A DNA stretch of 64,000 nucleotides from a phage: the sequence record PX418922.1. One strand, given 5' to 3'. Of this stretch, positions 3,135 through 60,304 are shown one piece after another. A program made the translations under genes and the position numbers. How positions within the stretch are numbered: position 1 is the first letter of the stretch; every line of letters begins with the position of its first letter. The notes under the pieces are model-generated. The model saw only the letters and a list, made by a program, of their open reading frames with translations, was not told the DNA's origin and made no database searches.

Positions 3135-3142
3135 GAGTAAAA

Positions 3143-6002: not shown

Positions 6003-6241
6003 GAAAATTTTTAATAGGTATGTTCTGTACATATCCTGATAATAAAGTCAGTTCTACTAAAGTCTGGAACGCTGTAGGCATGTCGGTTATGACAGGCATG
6101 TTTATCTTTTTAGGAATAGAAAAAGAAATTCCTGAATGGATGGGTTGGGCTTTTGTTTTCATGATAACCCCTTCTCGCCTCATGAAAAATCTTATTGATT
6201 TACGCTGGGGCAGATCACAATCTACCAAAGAGGATGACTAA
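5999..6241 (+). CDS. small hydrophobic protein
   Basis: 80-aa ORF with hydrophobic stretch 'VMTGMFIFLGI', ATGA-type overlap with neighbours. Confidence 0.35.
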   Translation: MRKFLIGMFCTYPDNKVSSTKVWNAVGMSVMTGMFIFLGIEKEIPEWMGWAFVFMITPSRLMKNLIDLRWGRSQSTKEDD

Positions 6242-31270: not shown

Positions 31271-31873
31271 TTATGGACATTCATACCATTCTTTTTTACC
31301 ACCGAAGGCCATCACCACATCGCAAATATCCAGACCAGCTTTACCTACACCATATGCTTTCAGCTTCCATTCTCCATCTTCACGAACCAAGGAAGCCACG
31401 TGGCAGATTGTGTTACCAGCTACTTCAGGAGCCAGGAAGTCAAAATCCAGAATTTCCACATTGCGCTCGGAGTCGAAGATTTTAAGCATACCTTCAGAAG
31501 CATGACCAAAACGTTTCAGACCTGTATCATCATCAATGGTCAGAACAAAGGCAATCTCTTGTGCATCAGGAGAGATTTTAGCCAGAGTAATATCAATCTG
31601 CTCCATGCTGCCAGTGCCATCACGAACATCGTCACCAGCGAAGGTAGAACGTTCAGGATCAAACTTGTTAGCATAGCAAACAAGATGACGTGCAGACAGC
31701 ATTTCAGGATTGCCAGCGGCATTGTGACGACAAACCAGTGCACTTACATCCAGATCCAGTTTAGAATCAGACTTCCAAGAGAATTCCAGGCGCAGTTCTT
31801 TCAGAGCCGGAGCAACCTTCTTCAGGGAAATTTTTTCGCTAGAGCCTTTTTTCAGGGAAATTTTATCAGTCAT
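31271..31873 (-). CDS. terD: TerD-domain protein
   Basis: 'LDLDVSALV', 'GDDVRDGTGSMEQIDITL', 'IAFVLTIDD', 'VASLVREDGEWKLKAYGVG' match TerD family hallmarks. Confidence 0.7.
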   Translation of the reverse strand: MTDKISLKKGSSEKISLKKVAPALKELRLEFSWKSDSKLDLDVSALVCRHNAAGNPEMLSARHLVCYANKFDPERSTFAGDDVRDGTGSMEQIDITLAKISPDAQEIAFVLTIDDDTGLKRFGHASEGMLKIFDSERNVEILDFDFLAPEVAGNTICHVASLVREDGEWKLKAYGVGKAGLDICDVVMAFGGKKEWYECP

Positions 31874-31888
31874 CTTTTGTCTCCTCTA

Positions 31889-32158
31889 TTATTTAAGTGT
31901 AATACCAGTTACAGTCAATTCTACTTCCAAAAGCTTAGATGTGTTTTGGATTGATACTAATTGTGCATGATGGTTTAGTTCTACAGCAGAATAATCATTT
32001 TCCCCATCATCTACTTTTAAATAAACAATGATTTCACTAAGGTCTAAACCATTTTCGTCAAATGCATTTTCATAGACGAAAGTATCTCCTACATCCAAAT
32101 CTTTAATGGTAAGGCATCGTTTATTTACTTTTTGCTCATCAATTTCGAAGTTTAACAC
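31889..32158 (-). CDS. hypothetical small protein (paralog of 33180-33458)
   Basis: 'DLDVGDTFVYENAFDENGLD...VELTVTGITLK' vs paralog 'DLDVGATFMYYDAYEDAGLD...VDLEVTNITLK'. Confidence 0.4.
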   Translation of the reverse strand: MLNFEIDEQKVNKRCLTIKDLDVGDTFVYENAFDENGLDLSEIIVYLKVDDGENDYSAVELNHHAQLVSIQNTSKLLEVELTVTGITLK

Positions 32159-32387
32159 TTCTTCCTCCTAATGTTATCTCCGGTTTGTATATACGAAGAA
32201 TTATAGCATTTTCATTTTCTTTGTCAACCCATTCTTCATAATCAGGCCATACATGAATCTCTACTCTACTTACAATATCTTCCATTCGCACAGTCCCAAT
32301 GAAATACTCTTTGAGACTGCGCATAATGAAAGCTTCTCTCTCGCGCCAATAATTTTCTATGACTTGAGAGGCAAGCTCGTCGATCAT
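32139..32387 (-). CDS. hypothetical protein
   Basis: 82-aa ORF. Confidence 0.35.
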   Translation of the reverse strand: MIDELASQVIENYWREREAFIMRSLKEYFIGTVRMEDIVSRVEIHVWPDYEEWVDKENENAIILRIYKPEITLGGRSVKLRN

Positions 32388-33178
32388 TTTTTAGCACCTA
32401 CTTTAACAACCCACTCTCCGAACTCTTCAGATAAGAGTTTGTCATAAAGCTCTGAATCTGTCAAGTCTAAATCTTTAATGCCAATAAAACCAACATTATC
32501 ATAAGCATTTGCCAGTTCTTTCAGGAAGCCAAACTTCTCATTACCAACACCAACCATGAACCAATAAATAGGTTTATTCTTATTCTCTTCGATAAGACGA
32601 CGAACAGCACTAGGATCACCATTCTCACCATCCGTCTGGAAGAATACAACACCAGGGGTAATGTCAGCACCTGGTTCAGATACAGCTACAACTTTTTCAC
32701 GCTCTACAGACACTGTTTCAGTTTTACCAAGCAGACGATTAAAGAAGCCTTTCTTTGGAGCCTCCTCTTGTACCACTTGTTTAGTGGTAATATATTTAGT
32801 AACAGTGCCAAAATACTCATCGTAGATATCCGCCATTACAGGGGCGTAATTTGTTCCACCTCCGATACGAACATTACGCATACATTTACCAACATAGTCA
32901 TCGTAAACATCTGCTGTTGCTGGAGTAAGCTCTTGGGAACTCGTATTGAAGGCCCACATATCAATTTGTTGATTATCGTCGAACAGCATACCAAAAGGAA
33001 GCAGTTTACCTACAAAATCACTCACTACCCCATTAGAATATAGACCATGCATACTACCAGAAATATCTAGAGCACATGCTACACGAAGAACAATCTTACC
33101 TTCATTCAGGTTCTTATTCTTTTTCAGAGAGAAAGCAAGGTTTTCTTGACGTTTTTTCAGGCTGATTTTCTCGGACAT
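32384..33178 (-). CDS. von Willebrand factor A domain protein (TerY-like)
   Basis: MIDAS motif 'DISGSM', 'FFQTDGENGD'; N-terminus 'MSEKISLKK' echoes TerD N-terminus. Confidence 0.6.
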   Translation of the reverse strand: MSEKISLKKRQENLAFSLKKNKNLNEGKIVLRVACALDISGSMHGLYSNGVVSDFVGKLLPFGMLFDDNQQIDMWAFNTSSQELTPATADVYDDYVGKCMRNVRIGGGTNYAPVMADIYDEYFGTVTKYITTKQVVQEEAPKKGFFNRLLGKTETVSVEREKVVAVSEPGADITPGVVFFQTDGENGDPSAVRRLIEENKNKPIYWFMVGVGNEKFGFLKELANAYDNVGFIGIKDLDLTDSELYDKLLSEEFGEWVVKVGAKK

Positions 33179-33179
33179 A

Positions 33180-33458
33180 TTATTTCTCCTTCTTAAGTGT
33201 AATATTGGTAACTTCTAAATCTACTTCCACCATATTTGTATCTGGTGGGATGCAATGAGTATAGCCTCGTTGTGCTAGTGATCCATTAATACAGATCGCA
33301 CTGTTTGTGGAATTTTTAATGAACACCAAGTTACGGTAGGTATCCAACCCTGCGTCTTCATAGGCATCATAATACATGAATGTGGCCCCTACGTCAAGAT
33401 CTTCGAAAGCAATAGGTAAATCCTGACTTTTTTCTTCTTGAATATTGAATCTAAACAC
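33180..33458 (-). CDS. hypothetical small protein (paralog of 31889-32158); start inferred at GTG
   Basis: Track ORF is 33180-33524; RBS 'gaggagg' sits 5 nt upstream of in-frame GTG at 33456-33458, giving a length matching the paralog. Confidence 0.35.
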   Translation of the reverse strand: MFRFNIQEEKSQDLPIAFEDLDVGATFMYYDAYEDAGLDTYRNLVFIKNSTNSAICINGSLAQRGYTHCIPPDTNMVEVDLEVTNITLKKEK

Positions 33459-34014
33459 GCATACCTCCTCTACCAATTTTGAAGCCCAAATCGTAAGCTT
33501 CCTTGGTGATCTTTTGTAACTCACTTATAGGAAGTGTTACAAGAGGATCATCTTCTTCAATTTCCATCTTATCATCTTCTGTTTCAATGAGAGTATTATG
33601 CACTTTGTGATAAGGGTTGTCAACACGTTTAAACTTATTCTTTTCTGTGCTGAAAAAACAATCTGGATCTTCTTCGCCATCACCCCAACCTTGGTTAGGA
33701 TCTCCGTCAGATTGTTCTGTAGGGATTTCACCTGTAAAGTACTCTTCCAGCACCATAGCGATACCGTCCCTTGGATTTGAGGAATGCATCAAATCACAAA
33801 CCTTACCCCAATCCATAGCCCATTCGAACCGTTCACGAACGCCGTTTTCATCCTCCTTTCCAGAGAAAACACAACCATAACTATCATAGTTGCCATACAT
33901 CTCTTCAATAACAACACCGTCCTTCAAAAGAAAGAGATAACAAGGTGATCCGTCGAAAGAAGTAGAAAGGGCAGCTTTGCCCGATTCTTTGCACAAAAAG
34001 CTAAAACAACCCAT
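33451..34014 (-). CDS. hypothetical acidic protein
   Basis: 187-aa ORF. Confidence 0.4.
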   Translation of the reverse strand: MGCFSFLCKESGKAALSTSFDGSPCYLFLLKDGVVIEEMYGNYDSYGCVFSGKEDENGVRERFEWAMDWGKVCDLMHSSNPRDGIAMVLEEYFTGEIPTEQSDGDPNQGWGDGEEDPDCFFSTEKNKFKRVDNPYHKVHNTLIETEDDKMEIEEDDPLVTLPISELQKITKEAYDLGFKIGRGGMRV

Positions 34015-34412
34015 TACAAACCCTCCTTCAGATTATCAAGAGCTACAGTGGTTTCACAAAATTCTCCATAAGCTTTATGATGTTCCAGAAAAGCTTCGGG
34101 TCCACCCCAGTCATTATCTTGTGTATTCCAGCCATCAATAAAAGCATCTTCAATGATTGTGATCAGTTCCTGTCGAGTCAACGTAATGGTATCAGGTTTC
34201 TGCGTAGTTTCCACACGGAACCCTGGTTCTTCATAAAAACCTTTAGTTACAATGGATTCTAACTCTTCTGCATCACAGAGGAAGTAGCCACAAAGATAAC
34301 ACCAACCGTCACCATCTTTCATTACTTCATAAACTTCACCACTTGCTAACTTGGTGAAAAGAGTAGGGTCTGTTACTGTAAGTTTTAAAAGAATACCTGT
34401 TGGATTATACAT
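34014..34412 (-). CDS. hypothetical protein
   Basis: 132-aa ORF with RBS 'gaggagg' before ATG. Confidence 0.4.
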   Translation of the reverse strand: MYNPTGILLKLTVTDPTLFTKLASGEVYEVMKDGDGWCYLCGYFLCDAEELESIVTKGFYEEPGFRVETTQKPDTITLTRQELITIIEDAFIDGWNTQDNDWGGPEAFLEHHKAYGEFCETTVALDNLKEGL

Positions 34413-34578
34413 CTTCTTCCTCCTCTAAAATATGGAACCCGTAATTACAATAATCCTGAAAGGTTTCGTGCGCAAGATCTTCTATATCCTCTTGAGACAT
34501 ATCATCTTCAATTTCGATATCCACAACCTCATTGCATCCACACCAAGCAGTTTCAATATTCACTCGTAATATTTTCAT
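34405..34578 (-). CDS. small acidic Cys-containing ORF not in supplied track
   Basis: 57-codon ORF 'MKILRVNIETAWCGCNEVVDIEIEDD...' filling an otherwise empty gap, with overlapping stop/start at both ends. Confidence 0.3.
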   Translation of the reverse strand: MKILRVNIETAWCGCNEVVDIEIEDDMSQEDIEDLAHETFQDYCNYGFHILEEEEDV

Positions 34579-34775
34579 TACTCCTCCTCCTCATTGAAGT
34601 CAATATCTGCAAGGAGTTCGAATTTACGGAAGTTACGACAACCTTCATAAATATAACAATCACGACAAACTGCTAGAACACTTGGGGGATATATACCTCC
34701 CATCGGTGCGAATCGTTTTTCGTCATCATAACGGACACCAATGTCTTCATCAATTATATAGATACGGATTCTCAT
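34578..34775 (-). CDS. hypothetical small protein
   Basis: 65-aa ORF. Confidence 0.3.
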   Translation of the reverse strand: MRIRIYIIDEDIGVRYDDEKRFAPMGGIYPPSVLAVCRDCYIYEGCRNFRKFELLADIDFNEEEE

Positions 34776-35884
34776 TTACCAAGCCCTCGTTTCACAGCAG
34801 CTACCATCCCGTCTTCCAGAGATTGAACTTCATTAATATAATCAACACGAGCAGCACGGGCTTCCGTATTGATGCGGTTAGTTTCTTCCAACATCTTAAC
34901 CAAGTTTTCCTGATCGTGACGCAGAGTTTCAATATCCAACACTTGACGGTTAGCCAGTGCTGCTGCTTCGATCTGATTCTGTGTGGCAAGATCGCTACCC
35001 AGTTTAATTGCCAGGTTAAATTCATCAAGAACGTTATTCTGCGTCTCTGCTGCTTTCATTTGACGTAAGCTCTCGATATACATTGAGAAGTTAGCAGAGT
35101 AAGCAGGAATAACATTATTTACTATGTTACGCGCAGATCGCATTAAGCTTGCAGAAACTTTTTGCATACCTTGTACACGCGGTCCCATTTGGACACACAG
35201 TAGGCGCAATGCTTTTAAATCTGCAATACGAATCTCCAGAAGATCCAAAGTATCTCGGATCACTTGTCGCTGTTCTACTGCATCTTCTGGAAGAGCAGCC
35301 AAAGCTTGTTCTTCTTTTTCATAGGTTGTTGTTAGAAGCTGCATATCTCGGTTCAAACTTGCAGCATATTGTCCAATAGCTTGATGTAGCTTTTCAAGAT
35401 ATACCAAAGAATCTTCTTCTTTGCGAATATCCATTTGAAGGTTCTTTACCAACTCTTCAATACGGTTATTAACATTATCAAACTCCCCAAACAGGTCTTC
35501 TTTCATACCCATAACTTTTTTAATGAGTTTAGTAATACCCTTGCTTTGTTTAATAGAGTTTGGATCAAGTTGTTTTGCCTGTTTAATCAAAGCTGTGAGT
35601 CGTTCACTCATCTGATCGCCTTGATTACTACGTTGATGTTTTAATACCTCGGCATTCAAGGAACGCAAGGTTGTTCCTGCCTCTGCCCCAATCTCTTCGA
35701 TCTCTTGTCGGGTCATAGAAGGCAAAACTGGAACTTCTTGCGGTGCGGCTGGTGCATAAACAGGACTGGCATCTAACACGCTTGGAGCGAATACAGATTT
35801 ACTTGCATCTGTTGTTGCAGCAAATACGCTCATTTCAGGCTTCTTCTGACCGCCAGTAGCTGCTTTTAAAAATGGACTTGTCAT
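34772..35884 (-). CDS. TelA-like (toxic anion resistance family) coiled-coil protein
   Basis: 370-aa largely helical ORF of TelA-like size, located between TerD/vWA and TerC genes; assignment mainly contextual. Confidence 0.45.
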   Translation of the reverse strand: MTSPFLKAATGGQKKPEMSVFAATTDASKSVFAPSVLDASPVYAPAAPQEVPVLPSMTRQEIEEIGAEAGTTLRSLNAEVLKHQRSNQGDQMSERLTALIKQAKQLDPNSIKQSKGITKLIKKVMGMKEDLFGEFDNVNNRIEELVKNLQMDIRKEEDSLVYLEKLHQAIGQYAASLNRDMQLLTTTYEKEEQALAALPEDAVEQRQVIRDTLDLLEIRIADLKALRLLCVQMGPRVQGMQKVSASLMRSARNIVNNVIPAYSANFSMYIESLRQMKAAETQNNVLDEFNLAIKLGSDLATQNQIEAAALANRQVLDIETLRHDQENLVKMLEETNRINTEARAARVDYINEVQSLEDGMVAAVKRGLGK

Positions 35885-36471
35885 TCTTCATTCTCCTCTT
35901 CTGCATCTCTTATATATGGTGAAACACCGTACTCTTTAGCTACTTTAACCCAATCGTCCCATTTATACAACCATAATTTTCCTTCGGTCCCTTCTTTATC
36001 TGATTTCAACCACATATTAGGTTGCTTACCCGGGTACATGCGATTAGGTTTACGATTATAACCTCTAACACATCTTGTCGCAAACCTATCTACCAGAACA
36101 AGAACATATTTATACTCGTGGTTCAACGGCTCTTTGGAAGTGGCTTTAGGATTAGCCCCTAATTCTGCTGCCAGTTTTTGCCAATGAGCACCGTGCCTAC
36201 TAAACTTACCCATACAACCATCAATAGCATGAGCAATTTCGTGCTTCATTGTATCCACGATCATATCTCTTGTGGAGTTCTTATGCAAGTGCCAATTTAC
36301 AACAACAATTTTATCTCGGTAGTTGCACCAACCGAAAGAGTTATTCACTTTGTTTCTAACACAAGCTTTATATCCTGCTTCACGTAACATGTTGTAGTAA
36401 ACAGGAAAATCTTCTTTTATTTCCTGCATCACTTCCCACCACAAGAGTTGCAAGTCTCTCTCGGTATGCAT
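35881..36471 (-). CDS. SprT-like zinc metallopeptidase-like protein
   Basis: 'MKHEIAHAIDG...RHGAHW' HExxH motif in SprT-like context. Confidence 0.45.
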   Translation of the reverse strand: MHTERDLQLLWWEVMQEIKEDFPVYYNMLREAGYKACVRNKVNNSFGWCNYRDKIVVVNWHLHKNSTRDMIVDTMKHEIAHAIDGCMGKFSRHGAHWQKLAAELGANPKATSKEPLNHEYKYVLVLVDRFATRCVRGYNRKPNRMYPGKQPNMWLKSDKEGTEGKLWLYKWDDWVKVAKEYGVSPYIRDAEEENEE

Positions 36472-36474
36472 AAC

Positions 36475-37068
36475 TTACACCTTAAAAGCGAAATGCGTGG
36501 TCGTGGCTTCAAAATCAGGGCCAGATAAACTTGCACTGAAATCTGAAATATTTGTAATTAAAAAGCTTTTATGCATACCTAACACAGCCACGCTTTCAAT
36601 ATCTTCTACTAACATTTCAATCATGTTAGAAACATGGCTGAACGTATAGTTTTGTTTTTTGATGGTGTAGAAAGAAAGACTCCCACCTGCTGTATAAGAT
36701 ACCTCTTCAAAATCTTTAATCGTATATTGTGTGCCATCAGTAAAGAAAATGGTAGCTTTATTAGTAGCACGTTTCTTGTTTTTTGGTCCTTTTTTACGTT
36801 TACTGCGAGTAGGCAAACCGTTTGGGAACACCATAGCTACAAATTCTTCAGCAGAAACCTCCTTACCGAAATCATAACCATAAGAAACAGCGTCTATAAA
36901 CTCGTCATCTTCATTTTTAAAATAATGGAAATAGGGCCGATTTGAAAGATTATCAAGCATCTTATGCTCGTCCACAGCAGAGAATGTATCCCTCAAAGCG
37001 CGTGTGATTTGCAAAGCATTAGGCAACCTTTTAACACCTACGATGGAAGTACGAATAGAAATTGTCAT
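36475..37068 (-). CDS. hypothetical protein
   Basis: 197-aa ORF. Confidence 0.4.
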   Translation of the reverse strand: MTISIRTSIVGVKRLPNALQITRALRDTFSAVDEHKMLDNLSNRPYFHYFKNEDDEFIDAVSYGYDFGKEVSAEEFVAMVFPNGLPTRSKRKKGPKNKKRATNKATIFFTDGTQYTIKDFEEVSYTAGGSLSFYTIKKQNYTFSHVSNMIEMLVEDIESVAVLGMHKSFLITNISDFSASLSGPDFEATTTHFAFKV

Positions 37069-37082
37069 TGTTTTTCTCCTTA

Positions 37083-37520
37083 TTAACGCCGCTTGCTACG
37101 AGATGAACTCTTTTTACTTAAAGGGCTATTGTAAGATTTACGAGTTGTATAGCTACTATTTGTTTTAAAAGTTTGTCTCGGCTTTTCATAAGTTTTTATC
37201 TCTTGTTTAGGCTTACCATAAAAATTAGTTTTCGGTTTAGGTGTATTATAATGCTTATTAATAATCGTTCTGTTATCGTTATAATCCCCACTGCTACGAT
37301 TACTACCACCACTCATCATATGCCCTAACAACATACCTGTAGCAAACTCACTAACACCGCTACTACTAGAACCGCCACCATTGTTGATAATAGTTGTATC
37401 TCCGTCAGATCCTTGTTGAGCGTATTGTTGAGGAGGTTGTTGGTATTGTGCAGGATTTGTTTCATCCTCGCAAGCTGTTAAAAAGATACAACCAATTAAA
37501 ATCAGGGCTAGTTTTTTCAT
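37083..37520 (-). CDS. lipoprotein (Gly/Ser- and Lys-rich)
   Basis: Track ORF extends to 37595; likely start 'MKKLALILIGCIFLTAC' with lipobox LTAC (ATG at 37518-37520). Confidence 0.5.
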   Translation of the reverse strand: MKKLALILIGCIFLTACEDETNPAQYQQPPQQYAQQGSDGDTTIINNGGGSSSSGVSEFATGMLLGHMMSGGSNRSSGDYNDNRTIINKHYNTPKPKTNFYGKPKQEIKTYEKPRQTFKTNSSYTTRKSYNSPLSKKSSSRSKRR

Positions 37521-37707
37521 ATTTGCTTTCCTCGTTTTGGCTATTAATACATCTGTGTTTGAAATCTCCAGAGAAGCAATAAAGTTGCTCTCCATCTCGG
37601 TATAAACTCACTTTACTGCCGTTGATTACGCTTGTCAATACAAAAATTACAACAAACAACCCTATTGCAAAACAGATATTTTCAAACACAACCAACAAGT
37701 ATTTCAT
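37462..37707 (-). CDS. small membrane protein
   Basis: 81-aa ORF with N-terminal TM segment; overlaps lipoprotein gene start out of frame. Confidence 0.3.
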   Translation of the reverse strand: MKYLLVVFENICFAIGLFVVIFVLTSVINGSKVSLYRDGEQLYCFSGDFKHRCINSQNEESKYEKTSPDFNWLYLFNSLRG

Positions 37708-38054
37708 TTTAAAAACACCTCATCATCAGTCTCATTATCCCAGAAGAACAAATCCCAACCATTTGGATCATTCCATTTGGCTGCTGGAGAAGTCCATATT
37801 TGCTCAATATCAATATTCAAAACTTCACCGTTTCGTTTTGAAACAGCTTTAGTTAATTCCCAACGAGATACAGGCTCTACTTCTCCTGAACCACTTCCAC
37901 AACAAGCTACAACATTAGGAGGCAAATTAATTGGATCTTTGGTCACAATCATAACGCTTACCCCAGGGTAAACTTTTGAAAGATAATCTAAAACGTAATC
38001 CACATCACCAGATAAATCCCAAACAAGTTCTTGAATTTCATCAAAATTATTCAT
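37704..38054 (-). CDS. hypothetical protein
   Basis: 116-aa ORF. Confidence 0.4.
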   Translation of the reverse strand: MNNFDEIQELVWDLSGDVDYVLDYLSKVYPGVSVMIVTKDPINLPPNVVACCGSGSGEVEPVSRWELTKAVSKRNGEVLNIDIEQIWTSPAAKWNDPNGWDLFFWDNETDDEVFLK

Positions 38055-38065
38055 AAGTCTCTCCT

Positions 38066-38090
38066 ATAAAATAGCCTCCCGAAGGAGGCT
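38066..38090 (-). terminator. possible terminator hairpin after TerC gene
   Basis: 'agcctcccgaaggaggct' hairpin; on minus strand followed by 'attttat'. Confidence 0.4.
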
Positions 38091-38096
38091 CATCTA

Positions 38097-39071
38097 TTAA
38101 ACAGCAGCTTCTTCTTTTTCAGGGAAGATAAAGCTTGCAATAACACCAAGAGCTAATGTGCCTAGAACAATCATCAGACTTACGTTAGGGGAAATATCAT
38201 GCGGGAGGAATGACCACTTGGCATGAAGTGTTTCACCGAACGGGTGATACATAAGTTTAGCACCGACAAATACCAGAACCACAGCAACAGCTTTCTCTAA
38301 GTGAACCAGATATTTCACAGCTACACTTAACACAAAGAAAAGTGCACGTAAACCAAGAACAGCCATCAGCATTGCAGAATAAACTAGCAGAGGTTCTTGT
38401 GTCACACCGATCACAGCCGGAACTGAATCAAAAGAGAAGACAATATCTGTAAGCTCAATAACAAACACACAAAGAAGAGCAGGAGTTGCATATTTAATAC
38501 CATTCTTAATGGTGATGAACTTTTCACCATCCAGTGCATTGTGCACAGGCAGAACTTTACCTACTAAACGAACAGCCCAATGCTTAGAGTAATCAATATC
38601 CTCTTCTTCGTCACCACCTTTGATGATAGCCACGGCAGACCAAGCTACAATCAAACCGAACAACACTTGGACCGACCAATGAAGGTTAAACAAAGCGGTC
38701 CCTGCTGCAACAAAAATACCTCGGAAGACAATGGCTCCTGCAATTCCCCAAAGTAAAATCTTATGTTGGAGATGTGTGCTCTTAATTCCAAAGCTTGCAA
38801 AAATTGCCATGAACACCATCAGGTTATCTACAGAAAGACTCTTTTCCAACACATAGCCACTTAGGAAAAGCGCGGCAAACTCTTTACCATGTTCTACCCA
38901 AATGAATGCGTAATATCCTAAAGCTAAAGCAATCCAAAAAACAGACCAAAGCAAAGCAGATTTAATTCCAATTTCTTTATTCTCTTTATGACCAAAGAAA
39001 TCAATACCAATAGACAATGCTAAAATACCAACTAAAACAACTACATCAATAATGGGGAAACCAAGTTGCAT
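38097..39071 (-). CDS. terC: TerC-family integral membrane protein
   Basis: multi-TM ORF with 'EKSLSVDNLMVF' and 'FSFDSVPAVIGVT' motifs characteristic of TerC/Alx family. Confidence 0.7.
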   Translation of the reverse strand: MQLGFPIIDVVVLVGILALSIGIDFFGHKENKEIGIKSALLWSVFWIALALGYYAFIWVEHGKEFAALFLSGYVLEKSLSVDNLMVFMAIFASFGIKSTHLQHKILLWGIAGAIVFRGIFVAAGTALFNLHWSVQVLFGLIVAWSAVAIIKGGDEEEDIDYSKHWAVRLVGKVLPVHNALDGEKFITIKNGIKYATPALLCVFVIELTDIVFSFDSVPAVIGVTQEPLLVYSAMLMAVLGLRALFFVLSVAVKYLVHLEKAVAVVLVFVGAKLMYHPFGETLHAKWSFLPHDISPNVSLMIVLGTLALGVIASFIFPEKEEAAV

Positions 39072-39152: not shown

Positions 39153-39374
39153 TTATTTTGAAGAACTTGAGGAAAAGATCCCACGTAGTACAGCCATGAT
39201 AAATGCCACACACACCACAGTCCAGAAGGTGACAGGAACAGTGATATCTGTGTGACCCATCATTTCAACAACGTAGTTATAAGCCAGCAGCAGAAGCCAT
39301 GCTGGAATCATACTAATCAGAAAAGCAATAACAAACACAATAATCACTGCAAGAATACCTGCTAAAACGCCCAT
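39153..39374 (-). CDS. small membrane protein
   Basis: 73-aa ORF with two hydrophobic helices. Confidence 0.4.
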   Translation of the reverse strand: MGVLAGILAVIIVFVIAFLISMIPAWLLLLAYNYVVEMMGHTDITVPVTFWTVVCVAFIMAVLRGIFSSSSSK

Positions 39375-39874: not shown

Positions 39875-40702
39875 TTACAGAATGTGTTGTTTTGTGTAAC
39901 GATCCAAGAATTCAAAGTTTTCAGCATACTTTGAAATTCGGTTGTAACCTTCTCCCAAACATCCGAAGAAAAGTTGCTCTACATAGTAGTGTGGCAATTG
40001 GCTAAGAATGATTTTGAAGTCTTCGTGATTTTGGCCCATAAGATACTTAATAGGACGAACAAGACACTGTGCATCACGTTCTTCATTAATCATTTTAACA
40101 AAAGCTTCTGGTGTATTAATATAATTAAAATTCAGTTTAGCTTCGGTATCTGCTTGATTACCTTCATATTTTGCAAAATACAGGAAGTAAACATCATTTT
40201 TAACTTGATTTTCATCAAGGATCTCAATCAGTTTGTCTTCGTGCGTTCCAGTGATATTTACATCATCAATGAATACAAGCTTCTTATCACCCCAGAATTC
40301 TTTGTTGCAGTAGAATGTATCCCCATCAATAAGTTTCTTACGACTAGCTTTATCCAAGAAGCCATAATCATTAATATAGCTAACTTTACGATGAATAATA
40401 TCCAGTTCTGCTGAACGACCTTGATCATATTGTGCTTGCAACATATTAAAGTAATTAATAAAATGATCTGTCATCATTGTGGCAGCATTATGCACATGGT
40501 TGTAAGGAGAAGGAATGATAACAAATTGTTCCCCAATATGTTTCATTGCCACTTGAGCAAAAAACTGAAGTGCCAATTCTTTACCCATACGACGCGCGGC
40601 TTGGTTACTACCAAATTTCAATTTTGAATAATCTTGGATATCAAAAGTAGCAGTTTCCAGGTCATCAAATTTATTTGCAAAAATTTGAGTTTGATTACGC
40701 AT
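39875..40702 (-). CDS. phosphoribosyltransferase-domain protein
   Basis: 'KLVFIDDVNITGTHE' matches PRPP-binding motif of type I PRTases. Confidence 0.45.
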   Translation of the reverse strand: MRNQTQIFANKFDDLETATFDIQDYSKLKFGSNQAARRMGKELALQFFAQVAMKHIGEQFVIIPSPYNHVHNAATMMTDHFINYFNMLQAQYDQGRSAELDIIHRKVSYINDYGFLDKASRKKLIDGDTFYCNKEFWGDKKLVFIDDVNITGTHEDKLIEILDENQVKNDVYFLYFAKYEGNQADTEAKLNFNYINTPEAFVKMINEERDAQCLVRPIKYLMGQNHEDFKIILSQLPHYYVEQLFFGCLGEGYNRISKYAENFEFLDRYTKQHIL

Positions 40703-41351
40703 TTACAATTTCTCCTCTTTTAAGTTTCTCTAGTAAGTCGTTAGGGTTCTTAATATGACAGAAGTTAAATCCTAAGTCAACACATTTTCCATCATATTCT
40801 TCACTATCGCCTACGTGCAATACTTCGTGCCCTAACAGAGGGATCGGAGAATACGTGAGCGTGCGAGCAAAGAATCGCGGATCTGGTTTACAAAGTAAAG
40901 CTTCATCCGAGAAATGGGTGAACTCAAAACAATTCCAACTATCAAACTTACAAGCACGACGCAGGATATCCCCTGATATAAAGTTGGTATTGCTCTTAAT
41001 ACTCAAATCATAACGTCCCGAAAGATACAGCAAGTACATCGGCAGATCCACGGCTACGTGTGGTGGAAACTTAAGGAACCACTGTTCACACTCGAAACGA
41101 AGCTTTGCAGACTTCCAAGGTGTTATCCCAAGTTCAGAACCAAGTTTTTCCCAAGCGTATGCTGCACACTCGGCTTTGCCTTGAAGTGCTGCATTATCCA
41201 GTTCCTTTTTGATCTTCTTATAAGCTGCTCTTGCTTCCACTTCCGTAATATCTCCATATTTTGCGATAGTCCAGGCTCGCATGTCTGCGTAATTGGAGTT
41301 TGCTGTGATCAGTGTGTTCCATACATCAAAAGAGATATGTTTAATAGTCAT
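40695..41351 (-). CDS. HAD-superfamily hydrolase-like protein
   Basis: N-terminal 'FDVWNTL' (motif I-like) and C-terminal 'VGDSEEYD' (motif IV-like). Confidence 0.45.
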   Translation of the reverse strand: MTIKHISFDVWNTLITANSNYADMRAWTIAKYGDITEVEARAAYKKIKKELDNAALQGKAECAAYAWEKLGSELGITPWKSAKLRFECEQWFLKFPPHVAVDLPMYLLYLSGRYDLSIKSNTNFISGDILRRACKFDSWNCFEFTHFSDEALLCKPDPRFFARTLTYSPIPLLGHEVLHVGDSEEYDGKCVDLGFNFCHIKNPNDLLEKLKRGEIVNA

Positions 41352-41352
41352 A

Positions 41353-41958
41353 TTAAGCCCACCATGCGTCTAAGTTAAGATTACTGTCCACTACCACTTG
41401 TTCTATGTGGTAGCCTTTTATCTGTATCCCACTGTTCAAGAGCATATCATACGCTTCATTGAAACGCAACTTATCTTCTGCGGAATATAAGCGAGCATTA
41501 TAAAATCGGTAATCAATTTCTTCAGCATTAGAAGAAATACGGAAGAAGTTTGTTTCTACTTCGGGATCACTTGCTGAAGTCTTAATGTGAACTTCTCCGT
41601 AATTTTCTTTACTTAGATCCATGAAAAGAACACAGGCAACATGTTTAAACATTCGTTCCAGTTTGTAACGAACAACATTGAAACCTGCATTCTCAAGTTT
41701 TTCTACACACTGCAACATTAAAGTAGTGTCGAGATCGCTTTGATACTTTGTTAACATACGATCACGTTGAGACTTTGTATCCCGATGTAAATCAATTGTT
41801 GTGCATTTGGCACCAATAATCTTAGCTGCTTTCATCAACTCTTCAGAACTAACGTTAGATAAAGTAAGATGAAAATGGGCTTTCCACACTTTTTTAGCAG
41901 GGACACCAAAAGATTTATCCCCACTATTCGGCATGCTGACTACTACACTATGTTGCAT
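41353..41958 (-). CDS. hypothetical protein
   Basis: 201-aa ORF; 'HFHLTL' could be a 2H-phosphoesterase-like motif but unconfirmed. Confidence 0.4.
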   Translation of the reverse strand: MQHSVVVSMPNSGDKSFGVPAKKVWKAHFHLTLSNVSSEELMKAAKIIGAKCTTIDLHRDTKSQRDRMLTKYQSDLDTTLMLQCVEKLENAGFNVVRYKLERMFKHVACVLFMDLSKENYGEVHIKTSASDPEVETNFFRISSNAEEIDYRFYNARLYSAEDKLRFNEAYDMLLNSGIQIKGYHIEQVVVDSNLNLDAWWA

Positions 41959-55851: not shown

Positions 55852-56208
55852 ATGAAAAAATTAATCTTAGCCACATTGCTGGCTACCGTAAGCTTCACCA
55901 CTTACGCTCAAAAATTTGTAGCAGTTAAAACAGATATTGGTAAAGATGTTGTGATCACAGGCAACAAGTTTTACTATACACCTGGAAATGGTGTTCTAGA
56001 AGAGTGTAAAGATGTTGAGGCATATACAGGAAAAGAAGATAACACGGAACGTCCTTTTTATTCGATTATAGCCACTTGCAAAAATGAAATAGTAGCTATT
56101 AAACAATATAAAGATGCCCCTGGAGGAGAATACTTATTAGTCAAGAATATTAAGAGTGAAAAAACTGCAAAGTTTACAGTAATTATTTTAAAAGGAGAAA
56201 CGTTCTAA
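55852..56208 (+). CDS. secreted hypothetical protein
   Basis: start at 'MKKLILATLLATVSFTTYAQ' signal peptide with RBS 'ggagggaag' (track 55822). Confidence 0.45.
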   Translation: MKKLILATLLATVSFTTYAQKFVAVKTDIGKDVVITGNKFYYTPGNGVLEECKDVEAYTGKEDNTERPFYSIIATCKNEIVAIKQYKDAPGGEYLLVKNIKSEKTAKFTVIILKGETF

Positions 56209-57347
56209 TGAAATACACTATTTTTGGAGATGTGGCTGTTGTAAATAAGGAATATGGTGTTGAAGCTAATAAACTTCCTGCTGGAGTTTGGGTTGTCAAC
56301 TGCGATCCGCACGGTAACTACTCTTTAGTGCGTGGCGAAAGTTTCTCTCTTCCGAACACTCTTTATGGGGAAACTAAAGACCGCGCCGCACATGTTATTA
56401 AAACATTTGCTCGTCGTAGTAAAGAAGGTAAAAATACTGGGGTGTTACTGACAGGCACAAAAGGCAGTGGTAAGACGATGTTAGCTAAACTAATTAGCAT
56501 GTCCCTAATGTCCACAGAAGGTTTAGGTATTCCAACCATTTTGGTTACACAGCCTTACACAGATGCTGGCTTCTTAGAATTTATGAGTAAAATTACAGAT
56601 CGTGCTGTTGTTTTATTTGACGAATTTGATAAAGTGTACGCTAAGAAAGAAGATCAGGAAGCACTGTTGACCTTGTTGGATGGAACAGGAAGTGGGAATA
56701 AACTTTACATCCTAACTAAAAATAGTGGTTATATCTCGGAATATTTTGTAAACCGTCCTAGTCGTATCTATTACAGTTTCAATTACGATAAACTGTCTAG
56801 TGAAACTATGTTAGATTACTTGGATAAGAACTTGGTAAATAAAAAACACGTAGATAACTTCCAACGTTTATGGGATGTTAGCACAGAGTTGTCTTTCGAT
56901 GTTATTCAAGGTATTGTAGAAGAATTGAATTTCTATCCAAAAATGACTTTTAAAGAATGTCTTGAAATGATGGGTATTTCTTTAGGCAACGATGCTAAAT
57001 GGAATGTGGCTTCTATCGTAGCTAATGGCAAAACTCTGAAGGTGAATTGGATCAATAACTGGCACGACTTCACCCCTACTAAGTTTTTGTCGGGTGCTTG
57101 TTCCCTGAACATCTATCTGCAAAGCTTGAAAGATGATGAAGTGGAAGCAATGGAAACCAACAGTTATGTTATCCTGGATGAAGATGGTGATCCACATATT
57201 GATCTATGTGCAACTGCTGATGGTCTAACTTGTGATCTGATTGAAGGTGGTAAGATCCTGGTGATGAGCACTACACCAGGAAACACTCTGCGAGTGGTGC
57301 TGGAGCCTGTAACACAACGTTCCACCACATTAGGTAGCGTGTTCTAA
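56208..57347 (+). CDS. AAA+ family ATPase
   Basis: Walker A 'GTKGSGKT', Walker B 'VVLFDEFDK'. Confidence 0.55.
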   Translation: MKYTIFGDVAVVNKEYGVEANKLPAGVWVVNCDPHGNYSLVRGESFSLPNTLYGETKDRAAHVIKTFARRSKEGKNTGVLLTGTKGSGKTMLAKLISMSLMSTEGLGIPTILVTQPYTDAGFLEFMSKITDRAVVLFDEFDKVYAKKEDQEALLTLLDGTGSGNKLYILTKNSGYISEYFVNRPSRIYYSFNYDKLSSETMLDYLDKNLVNKKHVDNFQRLWDVSTELSFDVIQGIVEELNFYPKMTFKECLEMMGISLGNDAKWNVASIVANGKTLKVNWINNWHDFTPTKFLSGACSLNIYLQSLKDDEVEAMETNSYVILDEDGDPHIDLCATADGLTCDLIEGGKILVMSTTPGNTLRVVLEPVTQRSTTLGSVF

Positions 57348-57363: not shown

Positions 57364-57390
57364 AAACCCGCTTCGGCGGGTTTTCTCTTG
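57364..57390 (+). terminator. rho-independent terminator
   Basis: 'aaacccgcttcggcgggttt' hairpin followed by 'tctcttg'. Confidence 0.6.
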
Positions 57391-57422: not shown

Positions 57423-58409
57423 ATGGCAGCACCAAAATCATGGGAACAATATAAAGAAGAGTGTCAACCAATAGCAGAGAGTAAGCAAATCCAAATCTTA
57501 GGATGGACGGGAGAATGGAAAGGGGTTAATACAAAACTTGATTTGTTGTGTCATTGTGGTTATAAATGGGATACTACAAGTATTAACAATTTTAAACGTG
57601 GTAGTGGTTGTCCTTTATGTGGATATGAGAATACAAGGAAGGCACAAACAATATCCGACGATCAACATATTGCAGATTTCTTTTCTACAGGGAAGTTTAA
57701 GGAAGGCACTATTTTCACCAATACGGGGGAACGTAAAGGGTGTGATCCAGTATGGATGATTCAGTGTCCTGTTTGTTCTCATGATGAATATGTTAAAGCT
57801 GGACTATGTGATGGTAAGTTTTATATGACGCGTGGCAATCTTAAATATGGATACTTACCCTGCCGTTGCTCTGCATCTTATAGGTATACAGCGGAACAGA
57901 TTACGTATAAAGTAAGAAAGAAAATAGAAAAGAAAGGGTATGTTTGGATAGGATGGATTACCAAACCATCTTCTATAGGTAAGTTTAAATATATATGTAA
58001 GAGTCATGGGGAACAAAAAGGAACTGCAAACAACCTTTTAAACATAGGACAAGGTTGTCCGCAGTGTGCTAACAAAAATCAACAACAAGCCTACATTAAT
58101 TATATTTACGATGAGCAAGATATTATCTGTGCACTGAAGTTTGGTATTGCTAATAATAGTAATCGCCGTATGAAAGAACAAAATAGTCATAATGTGTTCA
58201 CTATGAAACAACACCAAGTGTGGCACTTCCCTACTGTTAAGCAATGCCAAAACGCAGAGAAATATTGCAAGAAGGTGTTAAACACGGAAGCAGTGAGCAA
58301 ATATTCTATGCAAGATGGCTACACAGAAACAGTGGAGCTATCTTGCATGGCATCCGTACAGAATATTTATAAACTTTATGGTGGAACATTACAGGAGGAA
58401 ACATGTTAG
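57423..58409 (+). CDS. Zn-ribbon repeat protein
   Basis: 328-aa ORF with at least five CxxC/CxC pairs ('CHCGY','CPLCGY','CPVCSH','CPQCAN'). Confidence 0.45.
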   Translation: MAAPKSWEQYKEECQPIAESKQIQILGWTGEWKGVNTKLDLLCHCGYKWDTTSINNFKRGSGCPLCGYENTRKAQTISDDQHIADFFSTGKFKEGTIFTNTGERKGCDPVWMIQCPVCSHDEYVKAGLCDGKFYMTRGNLKYGYLPCRCSASYRYTAEQITYKVRKKIEKKGYVWIGWITKPSSIGKFKYICKSHGEQKGTANNLLNIGQGCPQCANKNQQQAYINYIYDEQDIICALKFGIANNSNRRMKEQNSHNVFTMKQHQVWHFPTVKQCQNAEKYCKKVLNTEAVSKYSMQDGYTETVELSCMASVQNIYKLYGGTLQEETC

Positions 58410-58768
58410 TTGACGTTCAAATTATGCGCAACGAAAGAATGGACTTCTTTGAAGCAGTAGAGAAACATCTGATCAGATGGGACTATGAATTTGTTCCTGC
58501 TGGATGTGGACCAGTAGAGCATTTAGCGGAAGACGACGATGTATACATGATCATTCGTCAAGTGTACCAGACAGACCAGTGTGAAGAAACGCCCGAACTG
58601 ATTTTGTTTGAGTGTAAAGATCTTGCAAAATATTTTGACTATGGCGGAAAAGAGGGTCATAATCTCTCCAGATACAATAAACGTCTACTTATCTTAGACT
58701 ACATGCGGAACAACAAACACAAACTCATCGACGCAGACGCAGTTTATGGCTACTGGTGGATGGATTAA
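58403..58768 (+). CDS. hypothetical protein
   Basis: 121-aa ORF. Confidence 0.45.
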   Translation: MLVDVQIMRNERMDFFEAVEKHLIRWDYEFVPAGCGPVEHLAEDDDVYMIIRQVYQTDQCEETPELILFECKDLAKYFDYGGKEGHNLSRYNKRLLILDYMRNNKHKLIDADAVYGYWWMD

Positions 58769-58781
58769 CAAAGGAGAAACT

Positions 58782-58970
58782 ATGGCACGTTTAGCAGATA
58801 ACCCTGTATTCTACCCCGTTCTTGATCTTTATGATGAATTGACATATGTTGTGGAGCGGTATAATTACAATGAAGACCTCTTGGAGACAAACCTTAAAGT
58901 AGTTCTGATGAAAGCCTATCAGCAAGGGCAACGTGAAATTTTGGAGAGTATGAAAAATGCGAATAACTGA
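58782..58970 (+). CDS. hypothetical small protein
   Basis: start moved to ATG after RBS 'aaaggagaaact' (track 58746). Confidence 0.4.
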   Translation: MARLADNPVFYPVLDLYDELTYVVERYNYNEDLLETNLKVVLMKAYQQGQREILESMKNANN

Positions 58971-59499
58971 TGATTATGTATTCTTCTTTTCACATAAAGA
59001 TGTTTTTAGTAATTGGTATATTGCACCCTTTACAGAAACCGAACCAGGTTACAATCAGACATTTAATTGTGTCGAACAATACATGATGTGGCGTAAAGCT
59101 TTGCTTTTTAATGACCACAACACTGCACAGGCTATTCTGACTCATAGTTTGATACGGAAAGATGAGAAGATCCAAGCTTATTACAAACGTATGGGTAAGG
59201 CAGTGTCGGATTTTGATAACAACGTATGGGAAGAGAACCGTGAGCGTATTGTTATGCGAGGTTTATGCTTGAAATATGTACAGAATCCAGATTTGTATGC
59301 AGACTTACACCTTTACCAATACAAAACGTTTGTTGAAGCAAGCCCCTACGATAAGGTTTACGGAATTGGAATGGGGATGTATGAACCAGGGGTGCTAAAC
59401 CCTGCCACCTGGAAAGGGCAGAATCTTTTAGGTAAATATCATAATAAACTGATCGAAATACTTTTCCCAGACAAAATACCGCAAAGACGATATTTGTGA
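58957..59499 (+). CDS. NADAR (YbiA-like) domain protein
   Basis: 'FFFSHKDVFSNWY...FNCVEQYMMWRKALLF...EASPYDKVYGIGMG' matches NADAR/DUF1768 signature pattern. Confidence 0.5.
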   Translation: MRITDDYVFFFSHKDVFSNWYIAPFTETEPGYNQTFNCVEQYMMWRKALLFNDHNTAQAILTHSLIRKDEKIQAYYKRMGKAVSDFDNNVWEENRERIVMRGLCLKYVQNPDLYADLHLYQYKTFVEASPYDKVYGIGMGMYEPGVLNPATWKGQNLLGKYHNKLIEILFPDKIPQRRYL

Positions 59500-59554
59500 T
59501 ATTTTAACTTTTTTCATTTTTAGAACAAAGGTGTCACTTTGTAGCACAGAAATA

Positions 59555-59590
59555 AGGCTCCTACAGCACCGTAGAGAGCCTGTTATTTTG
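59555..59590 (+). terminator. candidate terminator hairpin after NADAR gene
   Basis: 'aggctcctacagcaccgtagagagcct' stem-loop followed by 'gttattttg'. Confidence 0.45.
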
Positions 59591-59721
59591 TCCTATACAA
59601 ACCCTTGTCTTTTTCAGTTTGCATCACTAGGATTCGATCTAAGTAGGTTCCTGAAGGTCTACCAATAAGATTAAAGGTTATCTCAAATTACCACTACCTG
59701 TTATCTCAAAAATTCCTCAAA

Positions 59722-59919
59722 TTATTTAAACTTTTTAAGAATTTACAAAAGTGAAAGTTGAAAACCAAAATTTAAAGTTTAGGAAAATTATCTTAAAATG
59801 TCAGATACAAAACAAAACTCAAAAGTCAAGGAAAATTTTAAAAATTTTGCGCGCCCACAGTATTTAAAGTTTTTTTGCTTTTACAAAAATGAAAGTACAA
59901 AAGCAAAATTTAAAGTTTA
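59722..59919. repeat. two ~60-bp AT-rich direct repeats (iteron-like)
   Basis: 'tttacaaaagtgaaagttgaaaaccaaaatttaaagttta' (59742-59781) vs 'tttacaaaaatgaaagtacaaaagcaaaatttaaagttta' (59880-59919), each preceded by 'atttaaa[c/g]ttttt'. Confidence 0.6.
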
Positions 59920-59940
59920 CAAAAATTTATGCAGATGGGA

Positions 59941-59957
59941 ATGAGAAGAGTTCTCAT
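59941..59957. promoter_or_regulatory. perfect 7-bp inverted repeat
   Basis: 'atgagaagagttctcat'. Confidence 0.4.
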
Positions 59958-59962
59958 GTGGA

Positions 59963-59988
59963 AATGCAAATGATAATGATTCGCATTT
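59963..59988. promoter_or_regulatory. Fur-box-like palindrome 1
   Basis: 'aaatgcaaatgataatgattcgcattt' contains GATAATGAT matching first half of Fur consensus GATAATGATAATCATTATC. Confidence 0.4.
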
Positions 59989-60024
59989 AGGTTTATAAAT
60001 GAGATTGATTCTTATTTAATAAAG

Positions 60025-60047
60025 TAAATGATAATCATTCTCATTTA
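60025..60047. promoter_or_regulatory. Fur-box-like palindrome 2
   Basis: 'taaatgataatcattctcattta' matches Fur consensus at about 16/19 positions and is near-palindromic. Confidence 0.5.
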
Positions 60048-60304
60048 GAGAATGACGCGCAGGGGCGGTGTTTGTCTCGCGCTCCCGTGTCCCCTCGCCA
60101 TGTACTAAGAATAACAGATCCAGCCAGGAAAGCAAGCGATTATTTTATCTTTACATTTCTTTACAAATATATAGCGCCCAGCCTACCGGCGATCAACCTT
60201 CCAACCAGTGCCCCTGGTATGTTAGCCCCGCCTTTACGCCGTGGGGTGGCGCTTCCTCTTCTGTATGTAAAACAGTATAAGCCCTATCCCTGGGCTTGTC
60301 AAGA

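Follow-up and report, generated by a model that had tools for sequence, protein, structure and literature searches.

Does a phage that encodes both a NADAR-domain protein and a macrodomain protein use them to keep its DNA free of ADP-ribose, or do these enzymes serve some other pathway? The question arises from a stretch of 64,000 nucleotides of the phage sequence record PX418922.1, which we refer to as the window, and which carries one gene of each kind (hereafter NADAR and Macro; coordinates are collected in Table 1). By its sequence the source phage is a phAPEC8-type coliphage of the genus Phapecoctavirus, subfamily Stephanstirmvirinae: the two regions of the record that are considered here share 97-99% nucleotide identity with Escherichia phages nepoznato, phAPEC8, vB_Ec-G1 and EF1-1, and the counterpart of the window on the phAPEC8 map is approximately its final 64 kb. 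One explanation, to which we assign a probability of roughly 0.6, is that NADAR and Macro are two unlinked, stand-alone erasers that guard replicating phage DNA from host DarT toxins. The two parts of this reading differ in strength; NADAR is likely to be an anti-DarTG1 factor, and the odds that Macro is an anti-DarTG2 factor are about even. Each gene has counterparts of at least 80% protein identity in 71 phage records, as would fit conservation of both across the genus.

A NADAR protein related to AdfN(Bas60)

The NADAR open reading frame (ORF) is intact from ATG to TGA, is preceded by a Shine-Dalgarno-like GGAGAG site 8-13 nucleotides 5′ of the start codon, and overlaps the end of the small ORF before it by 14 nucleotides. 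Its product matches Pfam PF08719 over profile positions 3-154 of 163 (E = 2e-35; 122.9 bits, with 35.1 as the gathering score), PHROG 1017 (2e-51), and the Phytophthora NADAR of PDB entry 8bau (1e-14). It also scores 111 bits (cut-off 73.7) against NCBIfam TIGR02464, "riboflavin biosynthesis intermediates N-glycosidase", a domain-level equivalog that picks up other Glu-type NADARs as well. An earlier note, made from the letters of the window, had described the two products as NADAR/YbiA-like and macro-like. Hidden Markov model searches agree with the first description, the catalytic residues being intact, and the second holds too, with a marginal Pfam match and strong PDB, PHROG, PADLOC and AlphaFold results; the matches of both proteins are far beyond chance.

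In the Phytophthora nicotianae protein, the residues that mutagenesis or structure links to ADP-ribose binding and to hydrolysis of guanine-linked ADP-ribose are E43, K50, R79, W89, R93, E125, D130 and W133, and the E. coli C7 NADAR counterparts of E43, K50 and E125 are E88, K95 and D171 (Schuller et al. 2023, PMC11543638). We mapped these positions using a HMMER alignment to 8bau, in which a chain numbering offset of 2 was allowed for, together with an alignment of 11 sequences (the window NADAR, the Bas60 protein, five metagenomic or bacterial NADARs, a Klebsiella phage protein, E. coli YbiA, T4 gp30.3 and a jumbo-phage NADAR). The equivalents in the window protein are E40, K47, K81, W91, R95, E127, D132 and Y135, with conservative changes at two of the sites (arginine to lysine at K81 and tryptophan to tyrosine at Y135). 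Across the 11 sequences E40, K47 and W91 do not vary, and E127 and D132 come close to invariance. NADAR subfamilies can be told apart by the residue at the E125 position, which is glutamate in YbiA and stand-alone "NADAR" proteins, aspartate in DarG1 and histidine in T4-like phage NADARs (PMC11543638). The window protein has glutamate at this position, within a VEASPYD motif, consistent with the identity of its nearest sequences after the phage relatives, which are stand-alone bacterial NADARs of ~160 amino acids (40-48% identity); identity drops to 28% for E. coli YbiA and to 18% for T4 gp30.3. We predict that the protein is an ADP-ribosyl-guanine, and possibly also cytosine, N-glycohydrolase.

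Among phage genomes, tblastn recovered NADAR homologs at ~58% identity in phi92-like phages that include the BASEL phage EmilieFrey, whose gene (bas61_0107) is at least 96.7% identical at the nucleotide level to the copies in PaulScherrer (bas60_0111) and JohannJBalmer. The window protein is 58-59% identical to the products of bas60_0111 and bas61_0107 over 172 amino acids (E = 2e-69). The window and Bas60 proteins both belong to PHROG 1017, T4 AdfN belongs to PHROG 652, and the order AAA ATPase, endonuclease-like gene, NADAR is kept between the Phapecoctavirus window and Bas60/61. This combination of identity, family and gene order suggests that the window NADAR is probably the ortholog of AdfN(Bas60) within one phage subfamily. 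Johannesman et al. (2025, PMC11825919) gave the name AdfN(Bas60) to the NADAR encoded by Bas60, Bas61 and Bas62, and report that it needs no further phage factor to neutralise DarT1 in E. coli; with it, RB69, T5 and Bas25 can again form plaques on DarTG1 hosts, but it is of no help to T5 on DarTG2 hosts. Both the window protein and AdfN(Bas60), from Justusliebigvirus, are stand-alone phage NADARs of ~180 amino acids with the VEASPYD motif, and an insertion of the form EK(I/E)QAYYKR(M/L)G is common to both, reading EKIQAYYKRMG in the window and EKEQAYYKRLG in Bas60. Nevertheless, ~41% of their residues differ, their C-terminal tails differ, and in the window two extra small ORFs precede the gene.

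Other characterized NADARs are more distant. T4 gp30.3, or AdfN(T4), is likewise an orphan phage NADAR that removes guanine-linked ADP-ribose and counters DarTG1 (PMC11825919, PMC11125620), but it aligns to the window protein with the low identity given above, belongs to a different PHROG, and has histidine at the Glu/Asp catalytic position; it also depends on the T-even context, whereas the Bas60 type neutralises DarT1 alone (PMC11825919). The DarG1 antitoxin NADARs (BC4488 subfamily; E. coli C7, G. lovleyi) share the fold family, the catalytic glutamate and lysine, and predicted hydrolysis of guanine-linked ADP-ribose with the window protein (PMC11543638). They have a catalytic aspartate where the window NADAR has Glu127, a comparison made through the residue mapping of PMC11543638 since the alignment contains no DarG1, and their N-terminal beta-beta-alpha basic extension for DNA binding has no counterpart in the window protein, whose initial MRITD aligns with the starts of stand-alone NADARs. 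We considered whether the gene could be a DarG1 antitoxin and set this aside given Glu127, the lack of the extension and the lack of a darT1 gene nearby.

The window NADAR has the Glu-type active site of E. coli YbiA and of stand-alone bacterial NADARs such as SCO5665 and the sigma70-linked E. coli NADAR, families that hydrolyse guanine-linked and also cytosine-linked ADP-ribose. For the cytosine adduct, removal is reported for SCO5665, the Amphimedon NADAR and the YbiA type, but not for the E. coli NADAR, DarG1 or the T4 NADAR (PMC12945103); by its active site, the window protein may remove cytosine-linked ADP-ribose too. The same active site, together with the score against TIGR02464, would fit a different role, that of a housekeeping N-glycosidase of the YbiA type, which breaks down reactive intermediates of the riboflavin pathway. 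The labels that databases attach to the NADAR and Macro genes of relatives ("hypothetical protein", "GTP cyclohydrolase II", "phosphatase" and "YbiA-like N-glycosidase") include two that point in this direction. However, the protein is closer to stand-alone bacterial NADARs, and closer still to AdfN(Bas60) at 59% identity, than to YbiA; E. coli YbiA itself hydrolyses guanine-linked ADP-ribose in vitro, and the closest tested protein is an anti-DarTG1 factor. Unlike YbiA and the stand-alone bacterial NADARs, moreover, the window protein is phage-encoded and lies in neither a riboflavin nor a LexA-operon context, and we saw no riboflavin (rib) genes in the window or in its relative EF1-1, the annotation of which was covered at positions 1-49000 and from 98000 to the end. 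A housekeeping role is very improbable.

Two database matches of the window NADAR are with candidate defence components, namely PADLOC PDC-M42C (5e-35) and, very weakly, the NCBIfam model "DS32_2 NADAR family anti-phage protein", which suggests that NADARs are used by phages and hosts alike in their conflict.

A stand-alone macrodomain related to SCO6735 and Tk.4

In a mechanically generated list the Macro ORF reaches position 39927. We prefer the ATG at 39861 as the start, as it has an AAGGAG site 6 nucleotides upstream, lies 13 nucleotides past the stop codon of the preceding phosphoribosyltransferase (PRTase) gene, and gives a gene of 474 nucleotides, as annotated in relatives. The match of the product to Pfam PF01661 is marginal (23.9 bits with a gathering score of 22; E = 4e-5), whereas other comparisons are stronger. 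PHROG 335 is matched at 2e-56 and the PADLOC DarG model at 3e-10, and sequence matches in the PDB include SCO6735, the best of them (8e-14), BT1257 (8e-10), TARG1 (5e-7) and Thermus DarG (5e-6). An AlphaFold model built with 33 homologs in the alignment had a predicted local distance difference test score of 93.3 and a predicted template modelling score of 0.90, and when this model was used in a fold search the top PDB structures were TARG1 (9e-12), BT1257, DarG, Poa1p and SCO6735, with template modelling scores of 0.74-0.87. As modelled, the protein belongs with macrodomains of the ALC1-like class (TARG1/DarG/SCO6735).

Within this class the catalytic residues are informative as to subclass. 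SCO6735 cleaves DarT-made thymidine-linked ADP-ribose on single-stranded DNA and rescues both E. coli and Streptomyces coelicolor from DarT; it does not have the catalytic lysine of DarG and TARG1, and instead needs Gln85, Asn27, which holds Gln85 in place, and Gly128 (PMC9411070). Its mobile loop is five residues longer and contains basic residues (PMC9411070). In Macro, the positions of Asn27, Gln85 and Gly128 of SCO6735 are occupied by N26, Q83 and G128; across 33-36 family members N26 and Q83 are invariant, and G128 is present in at least 90%. The Macro loop GQYRYGYNAKGRQLDY is equal in length to the SCO6735 loop GQHGMKTGSKGAPVRY and carries R85, K91 and R93. The SCO6735/BT1257 subclass and Macro thus have in common glutamine in place of the catalytic lysine, the Asn27 and Gly128 equivalents, and loop length, although SCO6735 is only ~30% identical to Macro and is chromosomal and SOS-linked, whereas Macro is phage-encoded and acidic.

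We also considered two better-known members of the class. The DarG2 antitoxin and human TARG1 share their fold class with Macro, and the same adduct is the predicted substrate. As a TARG1-type enzyme, however, Macro would be expected to carry the Lys84/Asp125 dyad, and the residues at these positions are Gln83 and Ala130. As a DarG2 antitoxin it would be unusual in having Gln83 at the position of DarG K80, in its length of 157 amino acids without a DarT-binding C-terminal domain, and in having no DarT gene nearby; the PADLOC and NCBIfam DarG models match the macrodomain only, and the NCBIfam DarG score is 34.7 bits with a cut-off of 250. Given the Gln83/Asn26/Gly128 arrangement and the lack of both the TARG1 dyad and a DarT-binding domain, the predicted activity is that of a DarG-class eraser in a protein that is neither DarG nor TARG1.

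The closest relative with a known phenotype comes from T4. Macro shares 37% identity with T4 Tk.4 (E = 6e-22), and PHROG 335 is the best match of either protein (Macro 2e-56, Tk.4 1e-65); the Macro family as a whole is present in ~2950 phage records, including "tk.4 phosphatase" genes of T4-like phages. In a HIDEN-SEQ screen, no T4 gene other than tk.4 was depleted on a DarTG2 host, a clean knockout of tk.4 was DarTG2-sensitive, and the gene was named adfM (bioRxiv 10.1101/2025.11.20.689424). The evidence in that preprint is genetic, and removal of ADP-ribose by Tk.4 is inferred there (bioRxiv 10.1101/2025.11.20.689424). Tk.4 and Macro are both stand-alone phage macrodomains of ~155 amino acids with H-x-C-N-C, N-L-Y-x-Q and I-G-A-G motifs. 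They differ in that Tk.4 has no long mobile loop, being ~9 residues shorter than Macro after the conserved glutamine, and in that tk.4 lies among small early genes beside tk and vs whereas Macro lies in a PRTase/TerC operon. We place Macro in the SCO6735/BT1257 subclass of lysine-independent hydrolases of thymidine-linked ADP-ribose and in the Tk.4/AdfM phage family, and predict that it is an ADP-ribosyl-thymine DNA glycohydrolase.

Some relatives of Macro, in Justusliebigvirus phage PHB05 (locus 4734-5450) and in metagenomic sequences, have an extra N-terminal segment of ~70-85 amino acids, which aligns with the beginning of the PHROG 335 profile; Macro itself does not have this segment.

Two predicted erasers and host DarTG systems

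The reading that we prefer combines these predictions. When an E. coli host with DarTG is infected, freed DarT1 would ADP-ribosylate guanines, and freed DarT2 thymines, in single-stranded phage DNA, blocking replication. NADAR would bind ADP-ribose through K47, K81, W91, R95 and D132 and cut the bond between ribose and N2 of guanine using E40 and E127, as an AdfN-type enzyme. Macro would cut the bond between ribose and N3 of thymine by the lysine-independent route of SCO6735, with Asn26 positioning Gln83 within the flexible Gly128 loop, as an AdfM-type enzyme; together the two would keep single-stranded replication intermediates free of adducts. Substrates, in vivo phenotype and the independent action of the two proteins are all inferred. 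T4 likewise carries one factor of each type, its NADAR being of another lineage (bioRxiv 10.1101/2025.11.20.689424), and the window genes represent a fresh example of known phage anti-DarTG counter-defence and not a new kind of system or mechanism. A literature search found no paper that connects DarTG with Phapecoctavirus or Stephanstirmvirinae.

The earlier note had also suggested that the two enzymes reverse DarT-type ADP-ribosylation of nucleic acids, and homology to AdfN(Bas60), Tk.4/AdfM and SCO6735 lends support to this prediction. Its view of a phage that encodes both as a counter-defence stands to the extent that each protein is homologous to a tested factor, but the two are not a linked pair and appear to be separate factors for different adducts. 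Its alternative, in which they serve the PRTase/HAD nucleoside-like pathway of a Ter module, is narrowed to Macro and to a minority position: Macro does lie inside a HAD-PRTase-TerC operon, although this adjacency is seen only in Stephanstirmvirinae, while NADAR is 19 kb away on the opposite strand in a transcription unit of its own, with no visible connection to the Ter module.

The anti-DarTG interpretation must nevertheless be weighed against several observations. Both functions are argued from homology, and at 59% and 37% identity the substrate specificity of either protein could have shifted; NADARs of equal activity in vitro are known from the literature to differ in whether they give cells protection from DarT1. 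For AdfM, the support comes from a preprint and is of the genetic nature described above. Macro is acidic (isoelectric point 5.3), which contrasts with the electropositive DNA-binding surface of SCO6735, although Tk.4 is acidic as well (5.9). Lastly, Macro is part of a tight operon of HAD, PRTase, Macro, a small membrane protein and TerC that is kept in both genera of the subfamily, hinting at a metabolic partner, and in other phages macro homologs are found beside NAD+ salvage genes, Sir2 or NADAR.

This last pattern bears on a second scenario, in which soluble ADP-ribose derivatives are the main substrates of one enzyme or of both, with the effect either of degrading NAD+-derived immune signals or toxic by-products (cyclic ADP-ribose isomers, ADP-ribose-1''-phosphate, or O-acetyl-ADP-ribose from a phage Sir2) or of feeding NAD+ recycling. 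Macro homologs at 41-49% identity lie between a ribose-phosphate-pyrophosphokinase-like (Prs-like) and a nicotinamide-phosphoribosyltransferase-like (NAMPT-like) gene in Vibrio phage Ceto (41% identity; locus 3135-6149) and beside NUDIX, NAMPT, NADAR, HAD and SIR2 genes in large phage-like contigs. The Ceto arrangement of Prs, Macro and NAMPT may resemble the two-enzyme NARP1 pathway of NAD+ reconstitution; NARP3, which we considered as a relative of the NADAR and Macro genes, is a PnuC/NadR pair and was set aside. Iyer et al. 2022 argued for such a role on the basis of gene contexts, a proposal that is older than the experiments: every phage NADAR tested since removes guanine-linked ADP-ribose from DNA, the Bas60 ortholog counters DarTG1 in vivo, and Tk.4 has a DarTG2 phenotype. 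Sir2 proteins are encoded by the close relative EF1-1 outside the window, yet no NAMPT, Prs or NUDIX gene was seen near NADAR or Macro in the window or in the covered stretches of EF1-1. Roles on DNA adducts and on soluble derivatives are not mutually exclusive, but as the main function of either enzyme we regard the latter as unlikely.

EF1-1 encodes Sir2-like NAD-dependent proteins at locus 22132-23263, and in two large phage-like contigs Sir2 genes lie within a few kb of macro homologs, so a functional pairing of Sir2 and Macro is possible in these phages.

A further possibility is that the substrates are not DarT products but ADP-ribosylated RNA or proteins generated by other host toxins or by phage ADP-ribosyltransferases (ARTs), whether ScARP/pierisin-like enzymes that modify guanine or cytosine or enzymes that target RNA. 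In favour of this, Glu-type NADARs remove guanine- and cytosine-linked ADP-ribose from both DNA and RNA (PMC12945103), SCO6735 de-modifies proteins as well (PMC9411070), and ALC1-like macrodomains are broad in their substrates. The direct genetic evidence, however, concerns only DarTG1 and DarTG2, and no annotated phage ART was found in the window or in the same stretches of EF1-1. We know of no such ART that serves as an E. coli anti-phage system acting on these phages. This scenario, which overlaps with protection from DarT without replacing it, appears distinctly improbable. The ICP1 factor AdfB, which we compared by its description only, is presented as a factor that works through binding to DarT and not as a macrodomain enzyme.

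If the anti-DarTG reading is correct, Phapecoctavirus would be covered against both known DarTG types, as T4 is, with a cover built using a Glu-type NADAR from the stand-alone bacterial NADARs and not from DarG1. Phages of this genus are widely isolated and are under evaluation against avian-pathogenic and multidrug-resistant E. coli, and the finding helps to predict host range on DarTG-positive strains and to correct database annotations.

Operon context of Macro and surroundings of NADAR

Table 1 Features of the window discussed in the text
Feature	Coordinates	Strand	Basis or remark
NADAR-domain protein, 180 amino acids	58957-59499	+	Pfam PF08719, Bas60/61 identity, PHROG, synteny
Stand-alone macrodomain protein (Macro), 157 amino acids	39388-39861	-	PDB matches, PHROG 335, PADLOC DarG, AlphaFold
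PHROG-22504 protein	41353-41958	-	Upstream of HAD
HAD-family hydrolase (context)	40695-41351	-	PHROG 14393 2e-117; weak HAD in Pfam, NCBIfam
PRTase_3, ComF-like phosphoribosyltransferase (context)	39875-40702	-	Pfam PF15610 8e-42
Small hydrophobic protein, 73 amino acids, probably membrane (context)	39153-39374	-	ORF translation
TerC/Alx-family membrane protein, last operon gene (context)	38097-39071	-	Pfam TerC 3e-40; TIGR03718 319 bits
SprT-like metallopeptidase	35881-36471	-	Ter-like module
TelA	34772-35884	-	Ter-like module
vWA-TerF	32384-33178	-	Ter-like module
TerD	31271-31873	-	Ter-like module
AAA ATPase (synteny anchor only)	56208-57347	+	Pfam AAA; 64% identity to Bas60/61 "FtsH-like protease", equal relative position
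CapR/T5orf172-type endonuclease-like gene (synteny anchor only)	57423-58409	+	Pfam CapR 8e-29, PHROG 681
Terminator-like imperfect hairpin with T-run	59556-59589	+	Read from sequence; ends NADAR transcription unit

The genes from HAD to TerC form an operon in which neighbouring genes overlap or are separated by very short gaps; the HAD and PRTase genes share 8 nucleotides, the gap between PRTase and Macro is the one noted above, and a terminator hairpin (38090-38073) follows TerC. The order HAD, PRTase, Macro, small ORFs, TerC is also present in the sister-genus phage PHB05, where Macro is 49% identical and the ORF corresponding to the small hydrophobic protein is 64% identical over residues 22-71. 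TerC is also part of a fairly complete Ter-like module (31271-39071, minus strand), in which several ORFs without an assigned function are interspersed. Phage Ter-like modules have been proposed to act in superinfection exclusion.

This arrangement is the basis of a third scenario, in which Macro serves the operon: PRTase and HAD would make the ribonucleoside-like metabolite of the Ter system, Macro would bind a phosphoribosyl or ADP-ribose-like intermediate or trim it (removing, for example, a 1''-phosphate or ester, in the manner of Poa1p), downstream action would fall to TerC and the small membrane protein, and NADAR would be unrelated. Tight junctions, the Shine-Dalgarno site that Macro has of its own, and a terminator placed only after TerC are in keeping with a shared function, as are the retention of gene order in Justusliebigvirus despite 49% Macro identity and the presence of Poa1p, an ADP-ribose-1''-phosphate phosphatase, among the best fold matches. 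The window has the full set of TerD, vWA-TerF, TelA, TerC, PRTase and HAD, the phage Ter system that Iyer et al. (2021, PMC7824862) report from some phages; Macro is absent from their list of Ter components.

The wider distribution of these genes argues for a looser association. HAD adjoins PRTase in every phage examined, and 157 phage records contain the pair. It is a conserved two-gene unit in Xanthomonas phage XaC1, Rhizobium phage RHph_TM30 and Brevundimonas phage Gurke, where neither a macro homolog nor TerC lies within 4.5 kb. These three distant lineages rule out Macro as a constant companion of HAD-PRTase. With ~2950 records for Macro and 157 for PRTase, most members of the Macro family must work without PRTase; homologs are found among the early genes of T4 and alone in phiTE as well as in the NAD+-related contexts described above, and Tk.4 has its anti-DarTG2 phenotype with no PRTase, HAD or TerC gene near tk.4. 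Nor is Macro a regular component of Ter systems, the adjacency having been seen only in Stephanstirmvirinae. Given these varied contexts and the HAD-PRTase pairs that occur without Macro, the operon adjacency appears to be lineage-specific, and service to the Ter pathway is a rather unlikely primary function for Macro.

A related idea is that an AdfM-like macrodomain was recruited into the HAD-PRTase-TerC operon, where it would act on the phosphoribosyl or nucleoside-like Ter product or link Ter to ADP-ribose signalling; in a milder variant, it is the Glu-type NADAR that reaches beyond DarT1, countering cytosine-linked or RNA-linked ADP-ribosylation. We regard this as speculative and hold it at a slightly lower probability still. 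Were recruitment to have occurred, it would provide the first enzymatic handle on the "nucleoside-like metabolite" of Ter. Why the Macro gene is fixed in the Ter-like PRTase/HAD/TerC operon of this subfamily is the point of wider interest.

The surroundings of NADAR are simpler. The gene is an orphan with no adjacent DarT or ART gene, its neighbours being the endonuclease-like gene and two small ORFs. Upstream, a strong terminator hairpin detected by a terminator scan (57364-57383) follows the AAA ATPase gene, and the endonuclease-like gene after it has 62-66% identity to the gene located before NADAR in Bas60/61. It encodes CapR repeats and has a weak T5orf172 (GIY-YIG-like) match, and its length varies, from 987 nucleotides in the window to 1185 in phAPEC8 and 1404 in Bas60, where part seems to be duplicated internally; such variability is typical of a mobile homing-endonuclease gene. 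The two small ORFs, at 58403-58768 (121 amino acids, PHROG 24465) and 58746-58970 (74 amino acids, PHROG 22330), are both on the plus strand and have no Pfam match. They are not at this position in Bas60 and Bas61, where NADAR directly follows the endonuclease-like gene.

Downstream, the terminator-like hairpin begins ~55 nucleotides past the NADAR stop codon; a simple terminator scan did not report this element, but its position matches that of an ARNold terminator annotated 56-82 nucleotides after the phAPEC8 ortholog. The ~800 bp that follow NADAR (59500-60300) are poor in ORFs, and a search of this stretch for tRNA and Rfam elements found none. The corresponding region in relatives has either nothing annotated or one small minus-strand ORF, and in the window it contains several promoter-like sites on both strands.

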